DNA of 24,954 nucleotides from a virus (taxonomy: Duplodnaviria; Heunggongvirae; Uroviricota; Caudoviricetes), in the IMG/VR virus record IMGVR_UViG_2778261464_000013. One strand, given 5' to 3'. Position 1 is the first letter of the stretch, and every line of letters begins with the position of its first letter. A program made the translations under genes and the position numbers. Positions 13,561 through 23,818 of this stretch are shown here, piece after piece. The notes beneath the pieces are model-generated. The model was not told the origin of the DNA and made no database searches. It saw only the letters and a list, made by a program, of their open reading frames with translations.

Positions 13561-14712
13561 TCAGCTTATTTGACCTAATAATTCTTCCGCATATTTTTTA
13601 TCACTATCCATCCGTTGCTGAACAGCATCCCTAAGATGCTCTTTCAACTTATCAGGATAATTTTTACATGCATCAATCAATTTTGTTCGTAAAAGCTTAG
13701 CACCATTTACAATGGTGGCATAAGCTAAAGCATCAGCTAACTCCTTAACTTTCACATCATCAGTAATGATAGAAGGGATTGAAAAAACGTAATATTTCGC
13801 AACATAATTTTGCGTATACCAACTATCATATAACAATCCAATTAAAGCATCACCAAGATCACCTCTTCTTTTAAATTTGCTACCAAATGTATTACCCCAT
13901 GTTCCTATAGCTCCTTTGGTCGCATCAGAATAGAAATCCAAATATCCTTTTTTGCACTCTTCGATGATTATATTTTCCATTCTAATTAAAACATCATCAG
14001 GAAGATTTCTCCATGCGCTCGGCTTAATTATTCTAAATACATTAGCAAACTCAACATTATTGCTAGCCTTGCGTAACTCATCACCTAGCAACCGCATTGC
14101 GGCTTTTTCTTCCTCTCCTGAAAAGCGTTGGTTTATTGCTTTGAATATAGAATCAATTTCCTTGGTTGGCCTTTCATTAAAGCGAGAAATTAAACTTTGG
14201 AAAAAATCTAGTAGTTTTTTTTCTGGAATTTGTGATATTAAAGCTTCTGCATAATCAGAATTATTTACAAAGTGAACCTCATAAATTCTTTCAAGAATTG
14301 CTGTGTAATCGAACTCAGCAACATCTCTTTTTAAATACTTAATAAAAGTATCCAACATGATCAATATTCTCATGCAGGAATCTTCTGTATCAGGGAAATT
14401 GTCATGTGTCCTTGGATTTCTTATACACTGATAGTAGCCTCTTAATAGTGCTTCAAATCCGCGCTGTTCGTCCTGCTCTGATACAGATTGAAGACTATTA
14501 ATTTGGATTCTAGGTGATTGTCCACCCAAAACAGTACCAACAAGCTGAGCCCCATCCCCTTCACATTGCCCTTTTTCACGCAGCAAAGTTGTTAGATATT
14601 TGGTTCCTGCAAGTATTGCATCCGAAAATTGGTTGTTTTCCAGCCTATTACCAATCGCTTCAACTAATTCCGCATCGAAATTATTTGTATTAAAGTTATT
14701 TTTTACAAACAT
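13561..14712 (-). CDS. Hypothetical cargo protein with an N-terminal HEPN-like R-x4-H motif (RNPRTH); candidate abortive-infection/defence protein
   Basis: 383 aa from ATG 14712..14710 (the track starts one codon earlier at a GTG). GGGGAG Shine-Dalgarno upstream. About 35% GC by hand count on the last 60 nt. The RNPRTH codons lie at 14421..14404. Confidence 0.55.
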   Translation of the reverse strand: MFVKNNFNTNNFDAELVEAIGNRLENNQFSDAILAGTKYLTTLLREKGQCEGDGAQLVGTVLGGQSPRIQINSLQSVSEQDEQRGFEALLRGYYQCIRNPRTHDNFPDTEDSCMRILIMLDTFIKYLKRDVAEFDYTAILERIYEVHFVNNSDYAEALISQIPEKKLLDFFQSLISRFNERPTKEIDSIFKAINQRFSGEEEKAAMRLLGDELRKASNNVEFANVFRIIKPSAWRNLPDDVLIRMENIIIEECKKGYLDFYSDATKGAIGTWGNTFGSKFKRRGDLGDALIGLLYDSWYTQNYVAKYYVFSIPSIITDDVKVKELADALAYATIVNGAKLLRTKLIDACKNYPDKLKEHLRDAVQQRMDSDKKYAEELLGQIS

Positions 14713-14794
14713 CACACTCCCCTTTTTTTGAAAGGGTATTGTATTGAACCTTGTTAAGATTTCTCAGATAAGTATCACACTATCTCGAGTTGCG

Positions 14795-14822
14795 CGCGCT
14801 CGTATCCCCGCCACGCCTGCCC
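14795..14822 (-). other. Candidate cos (cohesive end) region
   Basis: The minus strand reads GGCGTGGCGGGGATACGAGCGCGCGC. Its first 13 nt match the GC-rich cohesive-end sequence I recall for 186/P2 (GGCG[T/A]GGCGGGGAAAGCA...). It lies in the expected place, between the replication-side cargo and the portal gene. Recalled from memory and not verified. Confidence 0.3.
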
Positions 14823-14858
14823 GCTTTTTGTAGCGATTTTCATGCAGGTGCATGACAT

Positions 14859-14886
14859 AAGCAAAAGCCCACCAGAACTGGCGGGC
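14859..14886 (-). terminator. Rho-independent terminator downstream of the 260-aa membrane-protein gene
   Basis: On the minus strand: GCCCGCC-agttct-GGTGGGC (7-bp GC-rich stem with one G-U pair) followed by TTTTGCTT. It starts about 50 nt after the stop at 14935. Confidence 0.6.
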
Positions 14887-14934
14887 CTCAGCAAAAACGA
14901 TCCTCAAACGATCATGCATATTCATGCGGCATAG

Positions 14935-15717
14935 TCATGCAGTGACTTTGGTCTGGTCAGGCGTAGAAAAATCTTCGAAAGATTTATAAGTTTCAGTATC
15001 AAATATTGAAATACTCTCAACCTGATCCATTGGGATTACATGCCTAAAATGATTTAAGTTCAGTGGAGTTGAGTCTGCTGTAATATTTTTACTAAGGTAA
15101 AGTTCATAGTAACGATGCTGCTCATGGTATCTGAGCGTATCTTTATCACGATAACCACTGATGTATGGTATGAGAGCCAGATGCTGAGTTTCCTGATGCT
15201 CCATCCGAGGAGCAGCTACGTAACCAATGTAAACTTTTCTGGATTTTAGCGTAACAAAGATGAGCTTACCTTCATCTATAGCCTGAACTAACAGTGACTC
15301 AATTCCATCTTGAGCTGCCATCTCGCGATATGCAGATTGACGAATCTCTTCGTTTTCTATTGCTCTTCGCGCATTGTTACCTTGGTCATAAGCAATAAAC
15401 ACCGCAAGCAGCATAGACAACACAAAGAACAATGGGTAAGACATTATCTTTACGTCTGTGAGCCATGAATAAAAGTCCACATGTAACTTAGGCCAAAAAT
15501 AACCAAAAAAATTGATAACTGAGCTTATAACTAGCAAGGTAACGAATGTAACAGCCATCAGAGTAAACCCCTGAATAGCAAACTTACAACCATGCATAGC
15601 TACATAAAAATAGGAATTCCAACCATTACTTCTTGCTTGCCTGATGCGGGACTGGTAATGATTTTCGGTGTACCAGAACCCGCAAACCAGGACGACCATG
15701 ATAACTAAGGGTCCCAT
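14935..15717 (-). CDS. Hypothetical membrane protein: about 3 N-terminal TM helices and a soluble C-terminal domain of roughly 140 aa; candidate defence effector
   Basis: 260 aa. ATG at 15717..15715 sits 3 nt after the stop of the upstream 66-aa ORF, with AAGGA/GAGGA upstream. The flanking region is AT-rich by eye. Hydrophobic segments at roughly aa 3-15, 50-74 and 92-110. Confidence 0.55.
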   Translation of the reverse strand: MGPLVIMVVLVCGFWYTENHYQSRIRQARSNGWNSYFYVAMHGCKFAIQGFTLMAVTFVTLLVISSVINFFGYFWPKLHVDFYSWLTDVKIMSYPLFFVLSMLLAVFIAYDQGNNARRAIENEEIRQSAYREMAAQDGIESLLVQAIDEGKLIFVTLKSRKVYIGYVAAPRMEHQETQHLALIPYISGYRDKDTLRYHEQHRYYELYLSKNITADSTPLNLNHFRHVIPMDQVESISIFDTETYKSFEDFSTPDQTKVTA

Positions 15718-15720
15718 TCC

Positions 15721-15921
15721 TCATCCTTGTCGTTTTGCAGCCAATTCTTCCATTCTGGCACGCATTGATTCACGTACCTGCTTATTGTTCATGTTTAAGG
15801 TCGCCGCACCATTAGCATCTGTGATAATTTTACTATTATCAGACTGTTGCACATCCTGACGGATGACATCCTGCATAATCTTACCTGGTGCAGAGAGAAC
15901 TTTGCGCAGAAGTTCAGACAT
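15721..15921 (-). CDS. Small hypothetical protein (66 aa), translationally coupled to the downstream membrane-protein gene
   Basis: ATG at 15921..15919 is preceded by GGAGGA (4-nt spacer). The track ORF extends upstream to 15996 but has no Shine-Dalgarno there. Confidence 0.45.
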   Translation of the reverse strand: MSELLRKVLSAPGKIMQDVIRQDVQQSDNSKIITDANGAATLNMNNKQVRESMRARMEELAAKRQG

Positions 15922-15981
15922 ATTTTCCTCCTTATGCCTCAAACGCCACGGATTGTGGTGCATGGAAGCTGTCATCTTATG

Positions 15982-15987
15982 ATTATA
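15982..15987 (-). promoter_or_regulatory. Perfect -10 hexamer TATAAT (minus strand) upstream of the 66-aa/260-aa gene pair; candidate promoter
   Basis: The minus strand reads ...gttgtccTATAATcat..., about 55 nt upstream of the ATG at 15921. No good -35 element. Confidence 0.3.
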
Positions 15988-16099
15988 GGACAACAAAAAT
16001 ACGAAACTATTCGAAGAGTGCTACGTATTAACCTATTTACATATCACCCTGCAACCAATTTATCCATAACTAACGCCTCGCACGGCTCGTTGCTCAACC

Positions 16100-16134
16100 T
16101 TGCGAACGGTAAAAACCAGTTTTATCGTCCGCAA
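16100..16134 (-). other. Long near-perfect inverted repeat (15-bp arms, 5-nt loop) immediately downstream of the DinI-like gene
   Basis: ttgcgaacggtaaaa-accag-ttttatcgtccgcaa; 14 of 15 positions pair. No U-tract follows on either strand. Confidence 0.4.
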
Positions 16135-16140
16135 CGTTCC

Positions 16141-16374
16141 CTAATGTAACCAGCTGTCGTCTTCCCACACCTTCTGCATAATTTTCATCACTTGCTTCCT
16201 TTCTTCGTCCAGTTGCAGTCCGGTCAGTTCCACACCGTTAGAGCTACCTTTGCGGATACGAATTACCGTTTTGGGATACAGGGGGCGCAGATTGCGGTAA
16301 AGCTCGGATTCAAGGGCGTCCAGTGTAGACTGGCTAATCTTCTGCTCTTTATCGATCATTATTTCAATGCGCAT
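16141..16374 (-). CDS. DinI-family protein (DinI/Tum C-terminal domain-like)
   Basis: 77 aa from ATG 16374..16372 (MRIEIMIDK...LDALESEL...WEDDSW), which aligns well to E. coli DinI as I recall it. GAGGTGA Shine-Dalgarno. The track ORF extends upstream to 16446. Confidence 0.7.
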   Translation of the reverse strand: MRIEIMIDKEQKISQSTLDALESELYRNLRPLYPKTVIRIRKGSSNGVELTGLQLDEERKQVMKIMQKVWEDDSWLH

Positions 16375-16384
16375 AAAAGTCACC

Positions 16385-16573
16385 TCAGCTGATGACATCC
16401 ATTGAGCGGTTGTATTCGTGGGTTCTGATTTTTGCCATGAGTTCATCTGTTAGTTCAGAAACCCACTGCAAAGCCAGCCCCTTCTCTTCATCACTACACT
16501 CACTAGCCGCTACAAGCTTAAGAAAAAAATCAATGCGCTGGAGCTTCAAAGACTCCAAAAAATAGTCCTGCAT
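16385..16573 (-). CDS. Small hypothetical ORF (62 aa), first gene of the putative LexA-controlled operon; possible N-terminal part of a split Tum-like antirepressor
   Basis: Lies directly downstream of the LexA box. It overlaps the 5' extension of the DinI-like ORF in another reading frame. Confidence 0.35.
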   Translation of the reverse strand: MQDYFLESLKLQRIDFFLKLVAASECSDEEKGLALQWVSELTDELMAKIRTHEYNRSMDVIS

Positions 16574-16613
16574 CTTTCCTCCTATGACACCAAAGCAATA
16601 CTGTATACATAAC

Positions 16614-16633
16614 CACTGTTTATATTTACAGTA
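16614..16633 (-). promoter_or_regulatory. LexA (SOS) box caCTGTttatatttACAGta
   Basis: CTGT-N8-ACAG with an AT-rich spacer, against the consensus taCTGTatatatatACAGta. It lies about 40 nt upstream of the small ORF/DinI-like operon. An overlapping partial half-site (tactgtatacataaccac) is at 16599..16616. Confidence 0.7.
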
Positions 16634-16725
16634 TATAATAATCTTACTGATGTAAAACGTTTTTTTACGTTCATCAGCCTGATATGCCTAGTATTATTAA
16701 GAGCACGAATTGTTAACCCGCGTAA

Positions 16726-19140
16726 TTAATACAGGTTCCGCCACTTATCATCTTCCTTCAGACGCTGGTTCCGATAGAAGATACGCAGGCCTGCTCCTGA
16801 CGGAATACTGCCACCGCGAAGGAGTAAATCGACCTCTTTCTCGCTGCCATCAAATCCTCTGGACTTCAGTTCATAGACGAGCTGCTGTCGTTGATGGTCT
16901 GTAATTCGCTGTTTGTAGTCTCTACGCCGTTTCGGTTTCACCAGGCGTAACCTTACAGCCAGTTCCCGGCGCTCTTTTTTGTTCATACTGTGCAGAAAAT
17001 CGTGCAACTCCTTGTCATCCATGCGGGTAATATCCGTTCTGGTGTCCCCATCAGCTGATTTATCTTTCTCCTGTTGGTTCAAATTTTCAGCAAGGGGACA
17101 GTTATTGCCACGAGTCCAAGGGGCGCAAGCGCCCTGGTCGGCTGCCGCCTCCTGAACGTCAACGGCCTTACGAACCATTTTCCACTTCACTGCATGAGTG
17201 CAGATCTTGCCCTCTGCAATGGGTGACCAGATGCCATAAATACGAATGCCGTGATCGCCATAGGCGGTCGGCTCTTCGTTAATTTCATAAGCAGTTCTGA
17301 TGAGGTGATATTTGCGGGGAACCAGTACGCCACCCTGCTTCATGATGTAAGTGGCAAAACAACCAGCATCAGCAGCAGCCAGGATGGCATCAAGGCGCGG
17401 GTTATCCAGTACCGGCGCACCTGCTTTTTTGTCGCCCTGTTGCCTTGCCGCCTGACCAGCCAGCAATCGCAGTTCACGGTAAGCCTGACGCCCCGGAATA
17501 CCAAAGAAGCGGAATTGCTGAACACGATGCAGAGACGCCCAGGCATTAACGTATTCAGCGTTATCACGCAGGGATTTACCCGTTTCCTTGCTGATCTCGC
17601 CAGCCAGACCACGCCCGTCAATGTTCTTACTAATGTATTTCGCGATGTAGCTTGTCGGTGTTCCTTTGCGCGGGTTTATCAGCTCAGATTTAAAGCGTGG
17701 ACCAGTGTTATTACCCAGTTCCTCGCGGTCTTCACGGATGGCAAACTTACACAACAATGCAGTAATGGCACGGCGGTCTTTTTTGCGCATGAAACACAAC
17801 AGGTGCCAGTGAACCGTACCGTCATGATGCGGCTCAGCCACCCGCACGCCATACCAGCGCAACCCGGCTTTGTGCATCGCCTTACGAAATGCAGCAAACA
17901 TGCCGACCAGATAATCGCTGCTTTGTCTTACCGTCGCATTTGTCCAGGTTGGGTTTGGTCTGCCGTTATTGAGCGTGGAATGGAAACGTGACGGACAGGT
18001 GATGGTGTAGAAAACGGCGCAGTCACCGCGCATTTCCGCGATAAGCTCCAGACCTTTAACACAGGCCATCATCTCATTGCGGCGATGTGCAGGGTTGCTG
18101 CTGCTGGCGTTTACCACGTCTTCCATATCCAGCGTGTCGCCGTCTTCGTTCACCAGTTCATGAGAACGAAAAAACTCCAGCGACTTACGGCGCTGCTCAC
18201 GTTTATGCATCACGGCTTCATAGCTGACATAGGGAGATGCTTTTTTGCTGACCAGGCAGACAGCGCGCAACTGCTCTTCCCGCCATTCGCAACGCATATT
18301 CCATAATTTCCGGTACCACCAGTCGGCGCACAACATACGCGCCAGCGAACCCGGAATGAGTTCATAGGGCACGGGTTTACGGCGGTTTCTTTTCCGGCGG
18401 AGTTGCTCAAACGCAGGTGGGATGACATCCAGTCGCAGGGTTTCTGCTGCCACCCTTTCCCATGTCTTGCGGATTTCTTCTGGCTTAACGTCATCGGTGG
18501 CATACAAATCGCCACAAGCTGCATCAAGGCACATGCTCATATGCGCAGCTACCAGGGTGGACAGGCGTTTCACCTGATCCTGACTCATTTCAGGCAGGAT
18601 CAGCAGGCCGTCCAGCCCTTCATGGCTCGCCATAAAGCGAAAAGAAGTGGATAGCTGACTGTCGCGTACATGCTCCAGCCGTTCCAGACATGGCTTAATC
18701 GTCTCACGCAAATAGCGGGAATAAGCCTTTGGCCTGCCCAGGCTGCTGAAGTATTCAATACGTTGCATCAGCGGCTTGCTGATATGGGAAGGCTGGGCGT
18801 TGACGTCAGCCAGAATGACCATGTCTGGATTAAAACGCTGCTGCTCATGCGCCAGCTTTGCCCGGCTAATGAGCTTATCCTGCTCCATTTCGCGCTGGAC
18901 AGGATCACGGGATTCATTAAAGAAATAACGCTCCCAGACCTGCTCACTCAGTGCCTCGCGGCGCAGTTGTTCCTGCTCGTTATCGGCAGCATACAGAGTG
19001 ATCAGGTTTGAAAGTGCAGACTCCGGCGCAACTTCCGCCGGGTCCAGATAAGGGTTAATGGCCTTTTTCGGGCCGTTCCATGAAAATGATGCGGCGGCCT
19101 CGTTAAAGCCGCTAGAGTTGCTCATATCGTCATGACTCAT
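16726..19140 (-). CDS. A: Replication initiation protein gpA (rolling-circle replication initiator/nickase)
   Basis: 804-aa ORF, the largest early gene, immediately downstream of the Dam gene with an ATGA overlap. Position and size are consistent with the P2/186 A gene. Confidence 0.8.
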
Positions 19141-21883: not shown

Positions 21884-22828
21884 ATGTCAACTCAAAAATT
21901 CACATTTCGCCATATTGATGACGATATGAAAGCCGTTGTCATACAAAATCGCGGTGGTCAGAAAGTAATCGAGCGGATACTCATGGCTTATGGCTTCAAG
22001 TCACGCCAAGCATTCTGTAACCATCTAGGTATTTCCCAAAGCACGATGGCTAACAGATATGCCCGCGATACATTTCCTGCAGATTGGGTTGTTATCTGCT
22101 CAATGGAAACTGGAGCATCAATTAAATGGCTAGCATTTGGTTCAGATGATGACGAACAAATGCCATCCCCTTCACCAGAACAGCATGTTGAAACACACTC
22201 CGAAGATGGTTCTTATCATGACGTTCACTATAAACAACCAAAGTTCGATAATGAAAACACCATTGATTATTCTCGGGGTGGCAAGGAAGCAATAGAGCGA
22301 ATTGTTAGGGCTTACGGTTATAAGACTCGCCAAGCCTTAGCTGATCACTTAGGTATTTCAAAAAGCACATTAGCCACAAGATATATGCGTGATGTTTTTC
22401 CTTCAGACTGGATAATTAAGTGCGCTCTCGAAACGGGTACTTCACTAATGTGGCTAACTACTGGTAAAGGCCCAAAGTTTGACGATGCAAGAAATGATGT
22501 AATTGCTATTACTCACAAAAAAATTACTGACGGGAATCTATTTGATTCAAATTTCTATATGCTTGATAAAGCATTACTACCAGACTCAATCCAATTACCA
22601 TTGATTGTTAGCACCGAAAAAAAAACATACCTATGTAATCAATCATTCGATGAAATTACAGATGGTAAATGGATTGTTGAAATAGAAGGGAAAGTGAGCA
22701 TTCGAACCCTAACTAGAATTCCTGTAGGAAGATTAAAAATTTCAGACAATGATTTATCATTTGAATGTAAAATTTCAGATATTGATGTTATTGCAAAATG
22801 CAAATTTATTCTGATAGAAGAATTATAA
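21884..22828 (+). CDS. cI: CI-type immunity repressor with a tandemly duplicated N-terminal DNA-binding domain
   Basis: 314 aa. Residues about 24-86 and about 132-194 are about 60% identical to each other (...IERI..AYG.K.RQA...HLGIS.ST.A.RY.RD.FP.DW...C..ETG.S..WL..G). A C-terminal domain follows. Confidence 0.7.
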   Translation: MSTQKFTFRHIDDDMKAVVIQNRGGQKVIERILMAYGFKSRQAFCNHLGISQSTMANRYARDTFPADWVVICSMETGASIKWLAFGSDDDEQMPSPSPEQHVETHSEDGSYHDVHYKQPKFDNENTIDYSRGGKEAIERIVRAYGYKTRQALADHLGISKSTLATRYMRDVFPSDWIIKCALETGTSLMWLTTGKGPKFDDARNDVIAITHKKITDGNLFDSNFYMLDKALLPDSIQLPLIVSTEKKTYLCNQSFDEITDGKWIVEIEGKVSIRTLTRIPVGRLKISDNDLSFECKISDIDVIAKCKFILIEEL

Positions 22829-22942: not shown

Positions 22943-23818
22943 TTGAAAAACCTATTGGATTCTCTAGAGTTTGATGAATTCGATATACTGCTTGATGCTT
23001 ACAGTCGAAATTTTTCTAAAAAAAAATATATGTATGAGCCCTTCATGCCTGACCATACATCATTGCAAAACAGTGAAGCAGATAAGTACCTTTTAAAAAT
23101 TGATGAGTTAGAACATAAACTACGCGAGTTTCAAAAAAGCCATAATTCGCAGTTAGACCAATTCAACAAGTTGCAGATAGAGTTATTAACTGCAATGGAC
23201 AGTAAAGAAAAACTAGCATCACAGCTAAAACTCCAACACGCCCAAAACAAAGAGTTAAAGCTTCAAAACCAAAAACTTTCAAGCAAAATTCAACAAAATA
23301 AAATTGACGAAAAAGTTCCTGAATATGTGCAGGGTGTCAAAGCAAAATTACATCAGGACGATAAAGATTTCACTGCAATGTCTTACAATTGGGCGATAGC
23401 CGGAATACTTTTATCATTATTATCTATAAGTGCCGCCTTTTTAACATTTTTCTATAAAATAGATATAAAAGACGCCACCCCCATTGAACTTTTTTATTAT
23501 TTCACTAGGGGCTTGCTTGGGGTTGCATTACTTTCTTGGCTTTCTTATTTTTGTTTAAACAATTCAAAAAAATACACACATGAAGCAATCATAAGAAAAG
23601 ACAGACAACACGCTCTAATGTTTGGTGAGGTCTTCTTACAAATTTATGGTTCAACTGCGACAAAACAAGATGCTATTGATGTGTTTAAAGATTGGAACAT
23701 GTCAGCTAATTCTGCATTCGCAGATAAAACGCAGCCACCTCCAAATTTATTTAACATTCTAGGCACACTTGCAGATAAAAAATCAGCAGCAAATGATGAC
23801 ATTGTTACCCAAAAGTGA
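22943..23818 (+). CDS. Hypothetical coiled-coil membrane protein (2 predicted TM helices) between cI and int; candidate superinfection-exclusion/defence protein
   Basis: 291-aa ORF, about 28% GC by hand count on 50 nt. The track start is a TTG with no obvious Shine-Dalgarno; the first in-frame ATG is at 23030, so the true start is uncertain. N-terminal Q/K/L-rich heptad-like region, then hydrophobic segments AIAGILLSLLSISAAFLTFF and LLGVALLSWLSYFCL. Confidence 0.5.
   Translation: MKNLLDSLEFDEFDILLDAYSRNFSKKKYMYEPFMPDHTSLQNSEADKYLLKIDELEHKLREFQKSHNSQLDQFNKLQIELLTAMDSKEKLASQLKLQHAQNKELKLQNQKLSSKIQQNKIDEKVPEYVQGVKAKLHQDDKDFTAMSYNWAIAGILLSLLSISAAFLTFFYKIDIKDATPIELFYYFTRGLLGVALLSWLSYFCLNNSKKYTHEAIIRKDRQHALMFGEVFLQIYGSTATKQDAIDVFKDWNMSANSAFADKTQPPPNLFNILGTLADKKSAANDDIVTQK

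Follow-up and report, generated by a model that had tools for sequence, protein, structure and literature searches.

A probable SOS operon with tum function divided over two genes in a Fels-2/186-like prophage of Escherichia coli

The two genes and their junction

The DNA analysed here (the window) is the whole 24,954-nt stretch of the virus record IMGVR_UViG_2778261464_000013, and the features of the region under study are collected in Table 1. Replication gene A and a 62-aa ORF (ORF62, the tumA-like gene) are separated on the minus strand by a spacer of 152 nt, which holds the promoter and the LexA boxes. ORF62 is followed by a gene for a 77-aa DinI-like protein, which has its own SD sequence and starts 10 nt past the ORF62 stop codon. 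The window genes downstream of the DinI-like gene are unrelated cargo. The downstream 260-aa ORF was considered as a homologue of orf97 of phage 186 and was rejected, as it has no similarity to 186 Orf97 or to Fels-2 STM2726. The generic promoter and terminator scan found no terminator after the dinI-like gene.

Table 1. Positions of the genes and sequence elements in the window.
Feature	Position	Strand	Remarks
186-type CI immunity repressor, presumed target of the tumA-like protein	21884..22828	plus	314 aa; two tandem HTH and a CI C-terminal domain
Replication gene A	16726..19140	minus	804 aa; immediately upstream of the module
-35 hexamer TTTACA of the p95-like SOS promoter	16651..16656	minus	read from the sequence; invariant in six aligned relatives
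-10 hexamer TACTGT	16628..16633	minus	17 nt after the -35 hexamer; inside LexA box 1
LexA box 1, TACTGTAAATATAAACAGTG	16614..16633	minus	core CTGT-N8-ACAG at 16616..16631
LexA box 2, CAGTGGTTATGTATACAGTA	16599..16618	minus	core GTGG-N8-ACAG at 16601..16616; 15 of 20 positions as in the consensus
SD of the tumA-like gene, AGGAGG	16578..16583	minus	
tumA-like gene (ORF62), putative antirepressor	16385..16573	minus	62 aa and TGA stop
Junction hairpin GTCATC-AGCTGA-GGTGAC	16379..16396	minus	from the terminator-like scan; tumA-like stop in the loop, dinI-like SD in the 3' arm
SD of the dinI-like gene, GAGGTG	16381..16386	minus	
tumB/DinI-like gene	16141..16374	minus	77 aa and stop; start ATG 16374

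The assignment of the downstream gene to the DinI family, which was part of the original prediction, is borne out by Pfam, where PF06183 matches over its full length (profile positions 1-63 of 63) with an E value of 6.6e-23 and a score of 81.3 bits, against a cut-off of 24.2. The protein also matches PHROG 189, annotated as 'RecA filament binding protein DinI', with an E value of 1.5e-29. It is 41% identical to residues 71-145 of 186 Tum, and it begins exactly at the internal GTG start of the 186 gene. Judging from its family, it would bind RecA filaments and modulate the SOS response.

A longer, 101-aa form of this ORF (16141..16446) had been described as overlapping ORF62 by about 62 nt in a different frame. 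The overlap does exist in the longest mechanical ORF, and only there; the gene is predicted to start at ATG 16374, where there is no overlap. Two non-overlapping genes are preferred because the Pfam match and the Tum alignment begin at or just after Met-25 of the 101-aa ORF (ATG 16374; MRIEIMIDK), because the PGAP annotation of E. coli 13TMH22 has genes of 62 and 77 aa with 10 nt between them (the two proteins being identical to those of the window), and because the N-terminal extension of the long form is not conserved. The number of open codons upstream of the dinI-like ATG is 25 in Fels-2, 14 in SopEPhi (without a start codon), 4 in Yersinia phage MLG42 and 1 in PSP3, and 25 of the 31 distinct 62-codon orthologues have a stop codon inside the overlap in the frame of the window-type long form. 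In the overlap region, the differing codons comprise 2517 synonymous versus 2561 nonsynonymous differences when read in the ORF62 frame and 625 versus 4597 when read in the long-DinI frame. These comparisons indicate that the locus has two adjacent genes 10 nt apart, and that the 62-nt overlap is an artefact.

ORF62, present as originally noted, is encoded in 66 phage records, and its protein is 98.4% identical to Fels-2 STM2728. RefSeq names it 'hypothetical protein', and in some sources it is called 'levan regulatory protein'. Pfam has no family for this protein, and the PDB holds no sequence relative of it. Pairwise BLASTP gives no alignment of ORF62 with 186 Tum or with PSP3 TumA, which is uninformative because the same comparison between the N-terminal half of 186 Tum and PSP3 TumA is also negative. 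In a profile comparison with hhalign, 29 diverse sequences of the ORF62 family aligned against 27 homologues of the 186 Tum N-terminal half give a probability of 96.3%, an E value of 1.7e-9 and 48 gapless columns starting from Met-1; the positions common to both families include E7, R13, Cys 26, the A-L pair 34-35 and E40. As judged from this one profile-profile comparison over 48 columns, the family of 62-aa proteins and the N-terminal half of 186 Tum, which is the antirepressor part, are homologous, and 'TumA-like antirepressor' is a name that this link supports for annotation. In the AF2 model, ORF62 is a two-helix hairpin (pLDDT 89). A Foldseek search of the PDB with this model finds no significant neighbour (best E 0.59, with the ExoVII small subunit and designed helical bundles), and the fold, as modelled, is uninformative on function.

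It had been proposed that the two ORFs could be a frameshifted, inactivated tum. In this case an indel would have broken an ancestral single 186-like gene into two pieces, and the prophage could not be induced by the SOS response. This proposal is in agreement with the structure of 186 tum, where both parts are one 146-aa ORF, and with the different frames of the two ORFs of the window. It does not agree with the pattern of variation. In 31 distinct orthologues from many genera the length of ORF62 is constant at 62 codons, the variable sites are distributed as 34/23/56 over codon positions 1/2/3, and the differing codons comprise 7926 synonymous versus 4777 nonsynonymous differences; from the third-position and synonymous excess it follows that ORF62 is, as far as sequence variation can tell, a protein-coding gene under purifying selection and not a fragment. 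In a DNA alignment of six sequences the tumA-like stop is at the same codon position, as TGA, TAG or TAA, and the SD and ATG of the dinI-like gene are kept in the relatives, with a spacer of 10, 11 or 12 nt. The SD and start signals of both genes are preserved. The homologues of the 186 Tum N-terminal half are also mostly stand-alone proteins of 63-91 aa, some of them named 'Tum protein', so that split forms appear to be common in the 186 branch too, and 186 itself has an internal SD and GTG at the junction. In addition, a passage in PMC12626290, quoting Bunny et al. 2002, reports that Fels-2, a prophage with this same arrangement, was missing from all of the rare survivors of lexA sulA Salmonella LT2. 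Inactivation of tum by a frameshift is considered to be extremely improbable.

A second proposal, programmed frameshifting or stop-codon bypass at the junction, would generate a Tum-like fusion besides the two separate products. In its favour, the long DinI ORF overlaps ORF62 in the window and in Fels-2, and there is a hairpin at the junction; in Yersinia phage MLG42 and in PSP3 the genes are in frame with only a stop between them, such that a fusion by readthrough is possible in principle. However, in the set of 47 enterobacterial species loci, 5 loci have the two genes in relative frame 0, 5 in frame +1 and 8 in frame +2, and programmed frameshifting is contradicted by this variation among close relatives. 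No slippery heptamer is conserved in the alignment, where the stretch before the stop is one of the most variable. The stops in the overlapping frame of the orthologues, as well as the many species loci without dinI (see below), also argue against it, and a C-terminal fusion to DinI is found neither among the 120 best-scoring of the 484 database homologues (these 120 being at least 81% identical) nor among 66 cluster representatives. It is therefore hardly credible that the junction is a site of programmed recoding. Comparison with the relatives shows two separate genes, in variable relative frame and with a gap of 3-12 nt (3 nt in PSP3). Of the three alternatives in the original prediction, only that of two separate genes survives.

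The junction hairpin is retained as a weak side note only. RNA folding predicts a like hairpin architecture in the window, in Fels-2 and in Klebsiella phi4.1, with different stem bases (GUCAUC/GGUGAC versus AUUUCC/GGGAAU), and it may couple the translation of both genes. The z values of these folds are only -0.5 to -1.6. In two further relatives the MFE fold lacks the hairpin, and it is not significant when compared with shuffled sequences: over five Fels-2-type junctions the z values range from +0.02 to -1.6, and 20-90 of 200 shuffles fold equally well. As a terminator or as a coupling device it was rejected, its energies being indistinguishable from those of the shuffles.

When a 1.86-kb query (14900..16760, from two cargo ORFs to the gene A stop) is compared with 5426 complete E. 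coli genomes, at least part of it is matched in 1125 of them, of which only 16 hold at least 80% of the query. The dinI-like gene follows the tumA-like ORF in only about 20 of the 47 species loci, more than half being without dinI, and the tumA-like gene occurs alone in ESSI-2-like phages and in many Pantoea and Enterobacter prophages. Judged by this distribution, the small tumA-like gene is the constant unit of the module, and DinI is accessory. The order of gene A followed by a tum-type gene is the same in 186, PSP3, Fels-2, SopEPhi and the Yersinia and Klebsiella phages.

The promoter region and its LexA boxes

The operon promoter has been placed by comparison with the annotated p95 promoter of 186. 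The 186 record gives the same hexamer as that of the window for the -10 of p95, and the p95-like promoter is probably the active promoter of the operon here. The generic promoter scan does not list it, the -10 hexamer matching at only 3 of 6 positions. LexA box 1 covers the -10 hexamer, as in p95, and a LexA operator placed over the promoter is a feature of the Tum/TumA type.

The near-consensus LexA box that had been predicted upstream of ORF62 is present as box 1. Its core is the sole match to CTGT-N8-ACAG in the window. This 16-mer alone is weak evidence, since at least one match occurs in 24 of 100 shuffles; the 20-mer of box 1 agrees with the consensus TACTGTATATATATACAGTA at 17 of 20 positions, and a match of this quality is found in none of 100 shuffles. 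An exact core within 160 nt upstream of the homologous ORF is seen at 34 of the 47 species loci, and at 9 more loci the core has one mismatch, such that 43 of 47 loci have a core with at most one mismatch. LexA is expected to bind to box 1.

The double SOS box formed by boxes 1 and 2 is a point beyond the original observation. The two cores share one base (G 16616), the 20-mers share positions 16614..16618, and together the boxes are an 18+18 nt near-palindrome. Two LexA boxes with a one-base overlap in a promoter region are the arrangement of the colicin-type double SOS box. The second box is present in the same position at 18 of the 47 loci, as a conserved feature of the Fels-2-type group, and neither 186 nor PSP3 has it. 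Two LexA dimers could be accommodated on the double box, and induction would be tight and late, similar to that of colicin operators. The double box suggests that this group of phages is kept from induction with the same tightness as colicin synthesis, which is a refinement and not a new principle. Rfam has no match in 15500..17000.

The CI repressor and the proposed mechanism

In the CI protein of the window Pfam identifies Phage_CI_repr twice and Phage_CI_C once (E 1.8e-57 and 5.1e-32), and the same domain search finds no LexA-type cleavage domain. In E. coli Ec1120, the PGAP annotation has the same CI protein of 314 aa. An Apl/Cox-like gene and a CII-like gene lie beside CI, and the window also holds an integrase gene. 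As a 186-type CI without a cleavage domain is present, an antirepressor is the expected route of SOS induction.

The original prediction of a tum-like, LexA-controlled SOS module, possibly split, is upheld by the agreement of the position of the genes, the promoter layout, the homology of both halves and the CI/Apl/CII switch. By its sequence features the module is of the Tum/TumA type, as seen from the homology to the N-terminal half, the site after gene A, the promoter overlapped by LexA boxes and the non-cleavable 186-type CI. Very probably, a Fels-2/186-like (Peduoviridae) prophage of E. coli has its SOS operon in this region, with the tum function residing in two independent genes, and the operon functions as follows. 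In the undamaged cell, LexA bound to the double overlapping SOS box would cover the -10 hexamer and the first transcribed bases, keeping the operon tightly off. On DNA damage, RecA-stimulated self-cleavage of LexA would free the promoter. The 62-aa two-helix protein, which is PSP3 TumA-like, would then bind the non-cleavable 186-type CI and lift it off its operators, leading to lytic growth. The 77-aa DinI-family protein, which corresponds to PSP3 TumB and to the C-terminal product of 186 tum, would be made from its own SD and ATG and would act on RecA filaments, possibly modulating the strength or the duration of the SOS signal. By analogy with the known systems, the effect of the tumA-like protein on CI would be binding with a reversible block of operator binding, and the CI encoded in the window is its presumed partner. 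The module looks intact and not decayed; therefore the prophage should be SOS-inducible via the LexA-controlled antirepressor and not via repressor cleavage. Such inducibility, on which the original prediction had a bearing, is thus likely.

It has also been considered that the small 62-aa protein, though induced by SOS, has another role, acting on host functions or on another prophage, in which case induction of this prophage would depend on something else. This would be in agreement with the generic helical hairpin of the model, which has no informative structural neighbour, and with the finding that an identical ORF62 protein is encoded beside CI proteins that are only 47-58% identical to that of the window, single-HTH forms included. 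Moreover, the papers searched yielded no direct assay of the Fels-2-type 62-aa protein, whose role as an antirepressor they infer. The profile homology to the antirepressor half of Tum, however, argues against another role, as does the invariable site of the gene, after gene A and under a LexA box, in phages with a 186-type CI. In addition, this CI is without a self-cleavage domain, and therefore some SOS-controlled antirepressor is needed. Another role for the 62-aa protein is thus regarded as improbable, and a tumA-like antirepressor acting on CI is the preferred reading.

Because the identical ORF62 protein adjoins such different CI proteins, the sequences indicate that a one-to-one match of TumA and CI cannot be assumed. 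The CI of E. coli 13TMH22, for one, has 188 aa. It is tempting to speculate that one invariant 62-aa TumA-like protein, behind a colicin-type double SOS box, inactivates many 186-type CI proteins via a conserved surface, although we consider this rather doubtful. If it is true, an SOS trigger that fires late and may be bistable would be shared by P2/186-like prophages and would cross-induce them, whether they reside in one cell or in different hosts, much as in the crosstalk of the Gifsy antirepressors. The CI repressors concerned, with their 47-58% identity, include the tandem-HTH form.

Comparison with known systems

The split two-gene tum arrangement is already known from Fels-2 and PSP3. 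A passage in Lemire et al. (PMC3121763) states that tum is split in Fels-2 and PSP3 and, via a personal communication, that the upstream gene of PSP3 carries the antirepressor activity. In the 186 record, in agreement with the original prediction, a tum repressed by LexA occupies the corresponding site: gene A is followed by p95 (-35 TTTGCC, an 18-nt spacer and -10 TACTGT), a LexA site and tum (146 aa). The slot after gene A and the promoter layout, with the -10 TACTGT inside a LexA box, are therefore the same in 186 and in the window; the N-terminal half of Tum is homologous at the profile level, and the C-terminal half has the sequence identity to the DinI-like protein described above. The 186 tum record lists several internal starts, the last of which is a GTG giving a truncated product that 'modulates SOS induction'. 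This GTG is preceded by AAGGAGG, such that in 186 the DinI-like part is also made separately from an internal SD and GTG. Unlike in the window, both halves of 186 Tum are in one ORF, there is a single LexA box, and orf97 is next in the operon.

The PSP3 record describes tumA (60 aa) as 'similar to 5' end 186 tum; UV induction of prophage' and tumB as 'similar to dinI and 3' end of 186 tum', and the DinI-family gene of Fels-2 (STM2726.1) is noted as similar to PSP3 TumB. In PSP3 (tumA/tumB) and in Fels-2 (STM2728/STM2726.1), as in the window, the genes lie directly after gene A, the -10 hexamer is overlaid by a LexA box, and the first gene, of about 60 aa, is followed a few bases downstream by a 77-aa DinI-like gene. 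The agreement is closest with Fels-2, whose proteins (98% identical) and operator are nearly identical to those of the window. PSP3 TumA is too diverged for BLASTP, and in PSP3 the two genes share one frame, with 3 nt between them and a single LexA box before them. In the window and in Fels-2 the gap is 10 nt, the frame offset is +1 and the box is double.

The dinI-gfoA/gftA operons of the Gifsy phages are also LexA-repressed and encode a small antirepressor together with a DinI homologue (PMC3121763). In these phages the repressor is inactivated by binding of the antirepressor and not by cleavage (PMC3121763). The Gifsy operons differ from the window in that the gene order is reversed, dinI being first, and in that these are lambdoid phages with unrelated repressors and antirepressors.

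The closest counterparts of the double box are bacteriocin operators. A literal sequence search of the literature for the second box of colicin E1 found nothing. The operators of colicin R (cra), colicin Y (cya) and pesticin (pst), which lie just upstream of these genes on small Col-type plasmids, are 86-92% identical to the 45-nt operator of the window. These operators also have two boxes, whose 16-nt cores share one base and of which the second is of the GTGG-N8-ACAG type. The genes under control are different: a bacteriocin/lysis operon in the colicin and pesticin plasmids and a putative prophage antirepressor here.

The tumA-like gene, its junction with the DinI-like gene and its relatives

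At the junction between the tumA-like gene (ORF62, a putative antirepressor gene) and the DinI-like gene, a hairpin is predicted that encloses the Shine–Dalgarno sequence and the AUG of the DinI-like gene, its 5' arm being formed by the last tumA codons. A junction hairpin of like architecture, made of other paired bases, is also predicted by folding in Klebsiella phage phi4.1. The folding z-scores of the junction hairpin are not significant. As modelled, this structure could provide translational coupling of the tumA-like and DinI-like genes.

In Escherichia phage 500465-1, several single-base indels are present in the tumA-like and DinI-like genes when compared with all other relatives. Together with a nearby IS21/IS100-type element and the truncation of gene A, these indels suggest prophage decay or sequencing errors. 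ESSI-2-like phages, together with many prophages of Pantoea, Erwinia, Enterobacter and Klebsiella, carry ORF62 homologues that have a LexA box and no DinI-like gene at all, and in many of these loci a GTG start lies 34 nt 3' of a perfect CTGTATATATAAACAG. The 62-aa protein is named 'levan regulatory (domain) protein' in some sources (UniRef; Klebsiella phage records) and 'hypothetical protein' in RefSeq; neither name reflects the link to Tum, the antirepressor of phage 186.

Over about 40 nt, the tumA operator, with its two overlapping predicted LexA boxes, shares 86-92% identity with the double SOS boxes 5' of the genes for colicin R, colicin Y and pesticin, which are carried by small mobilizable plasmids. 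The matching stretch takes in the unusual GTGG that forms the left half of box 2. Judged from sequence similarity, this likeness may be due to common descent, exchange or convergence.

Coordinates of the features (window positions unless a related locus is named)
Feature	Location	Strand	Remark
tumA operator region	16596..16640	-	compared with bacteriocin operators
Junction hairpin	16372..16402	-	predicted RNA folding
66-aa ORF	15721..15921	-	cargo slot
260-aa ORF	14935..15717	-	only PHROGs of unknown function
384-aa protein	within 13561..15921	-	N-terminal domain Hypoth_Ymh/HEPN-like
DinI-portal cargo slot	13561..15921	-	
CI repressor, 314 aa	21884..22828	+	two tandem 186-type HTH, one CI C-terminal domain
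291-aa ORF	22943..23818	+	function unassigned (PHROG 2628); between CI and integrase
ORF62 homologues without DinI-like gene	L004 1501..1713; L005 1501..1668; loci L031-L056		related loci
Escherichia phage 500465-1	L009 1399..2031		related locus

Variable cargo slots

For the genes that separate the DinI-like gene from the portal gene, identity with orf97, which follows tum in the 186 operon, was rejected; this region is variable cargo instead. The 384-aa cargo protein has weak PADLOC matches to PD-Lambda-3_B and Aga_HEPN, TIR-domain proteins fill the slot in relatives, and this slot probably serves as a hotspot for defence genes. At 15982..15987, 5' of the 66-aa ORF, a perfect TATAAT is present. 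A second slot for variable cargo separates CI from the integrase; the window has the 291-aa ORF there, and E. coli 13TMH22 an AAA ATPase together with a DUF4276 protein.

The CI repressor

The two HTH domains of the window CI (about residues 20-90 and 130-195) are clearly alike. Most of the CI region is held by only 7 of the 5426 complete E. coli genomes; the 314-aa form is also annotated (PGAP) in E. coli Ec1120, and full-length counterparts, 53-58% identical, are present in Klebsiella phages Kp4860-7 and ST11-OXA48phi15.3. The CI of phage 186, in contrast, has a single HTH domain and about 190 residues, as does the CI of E. coli 13TMH22, which is encoded beside an identical tum module.
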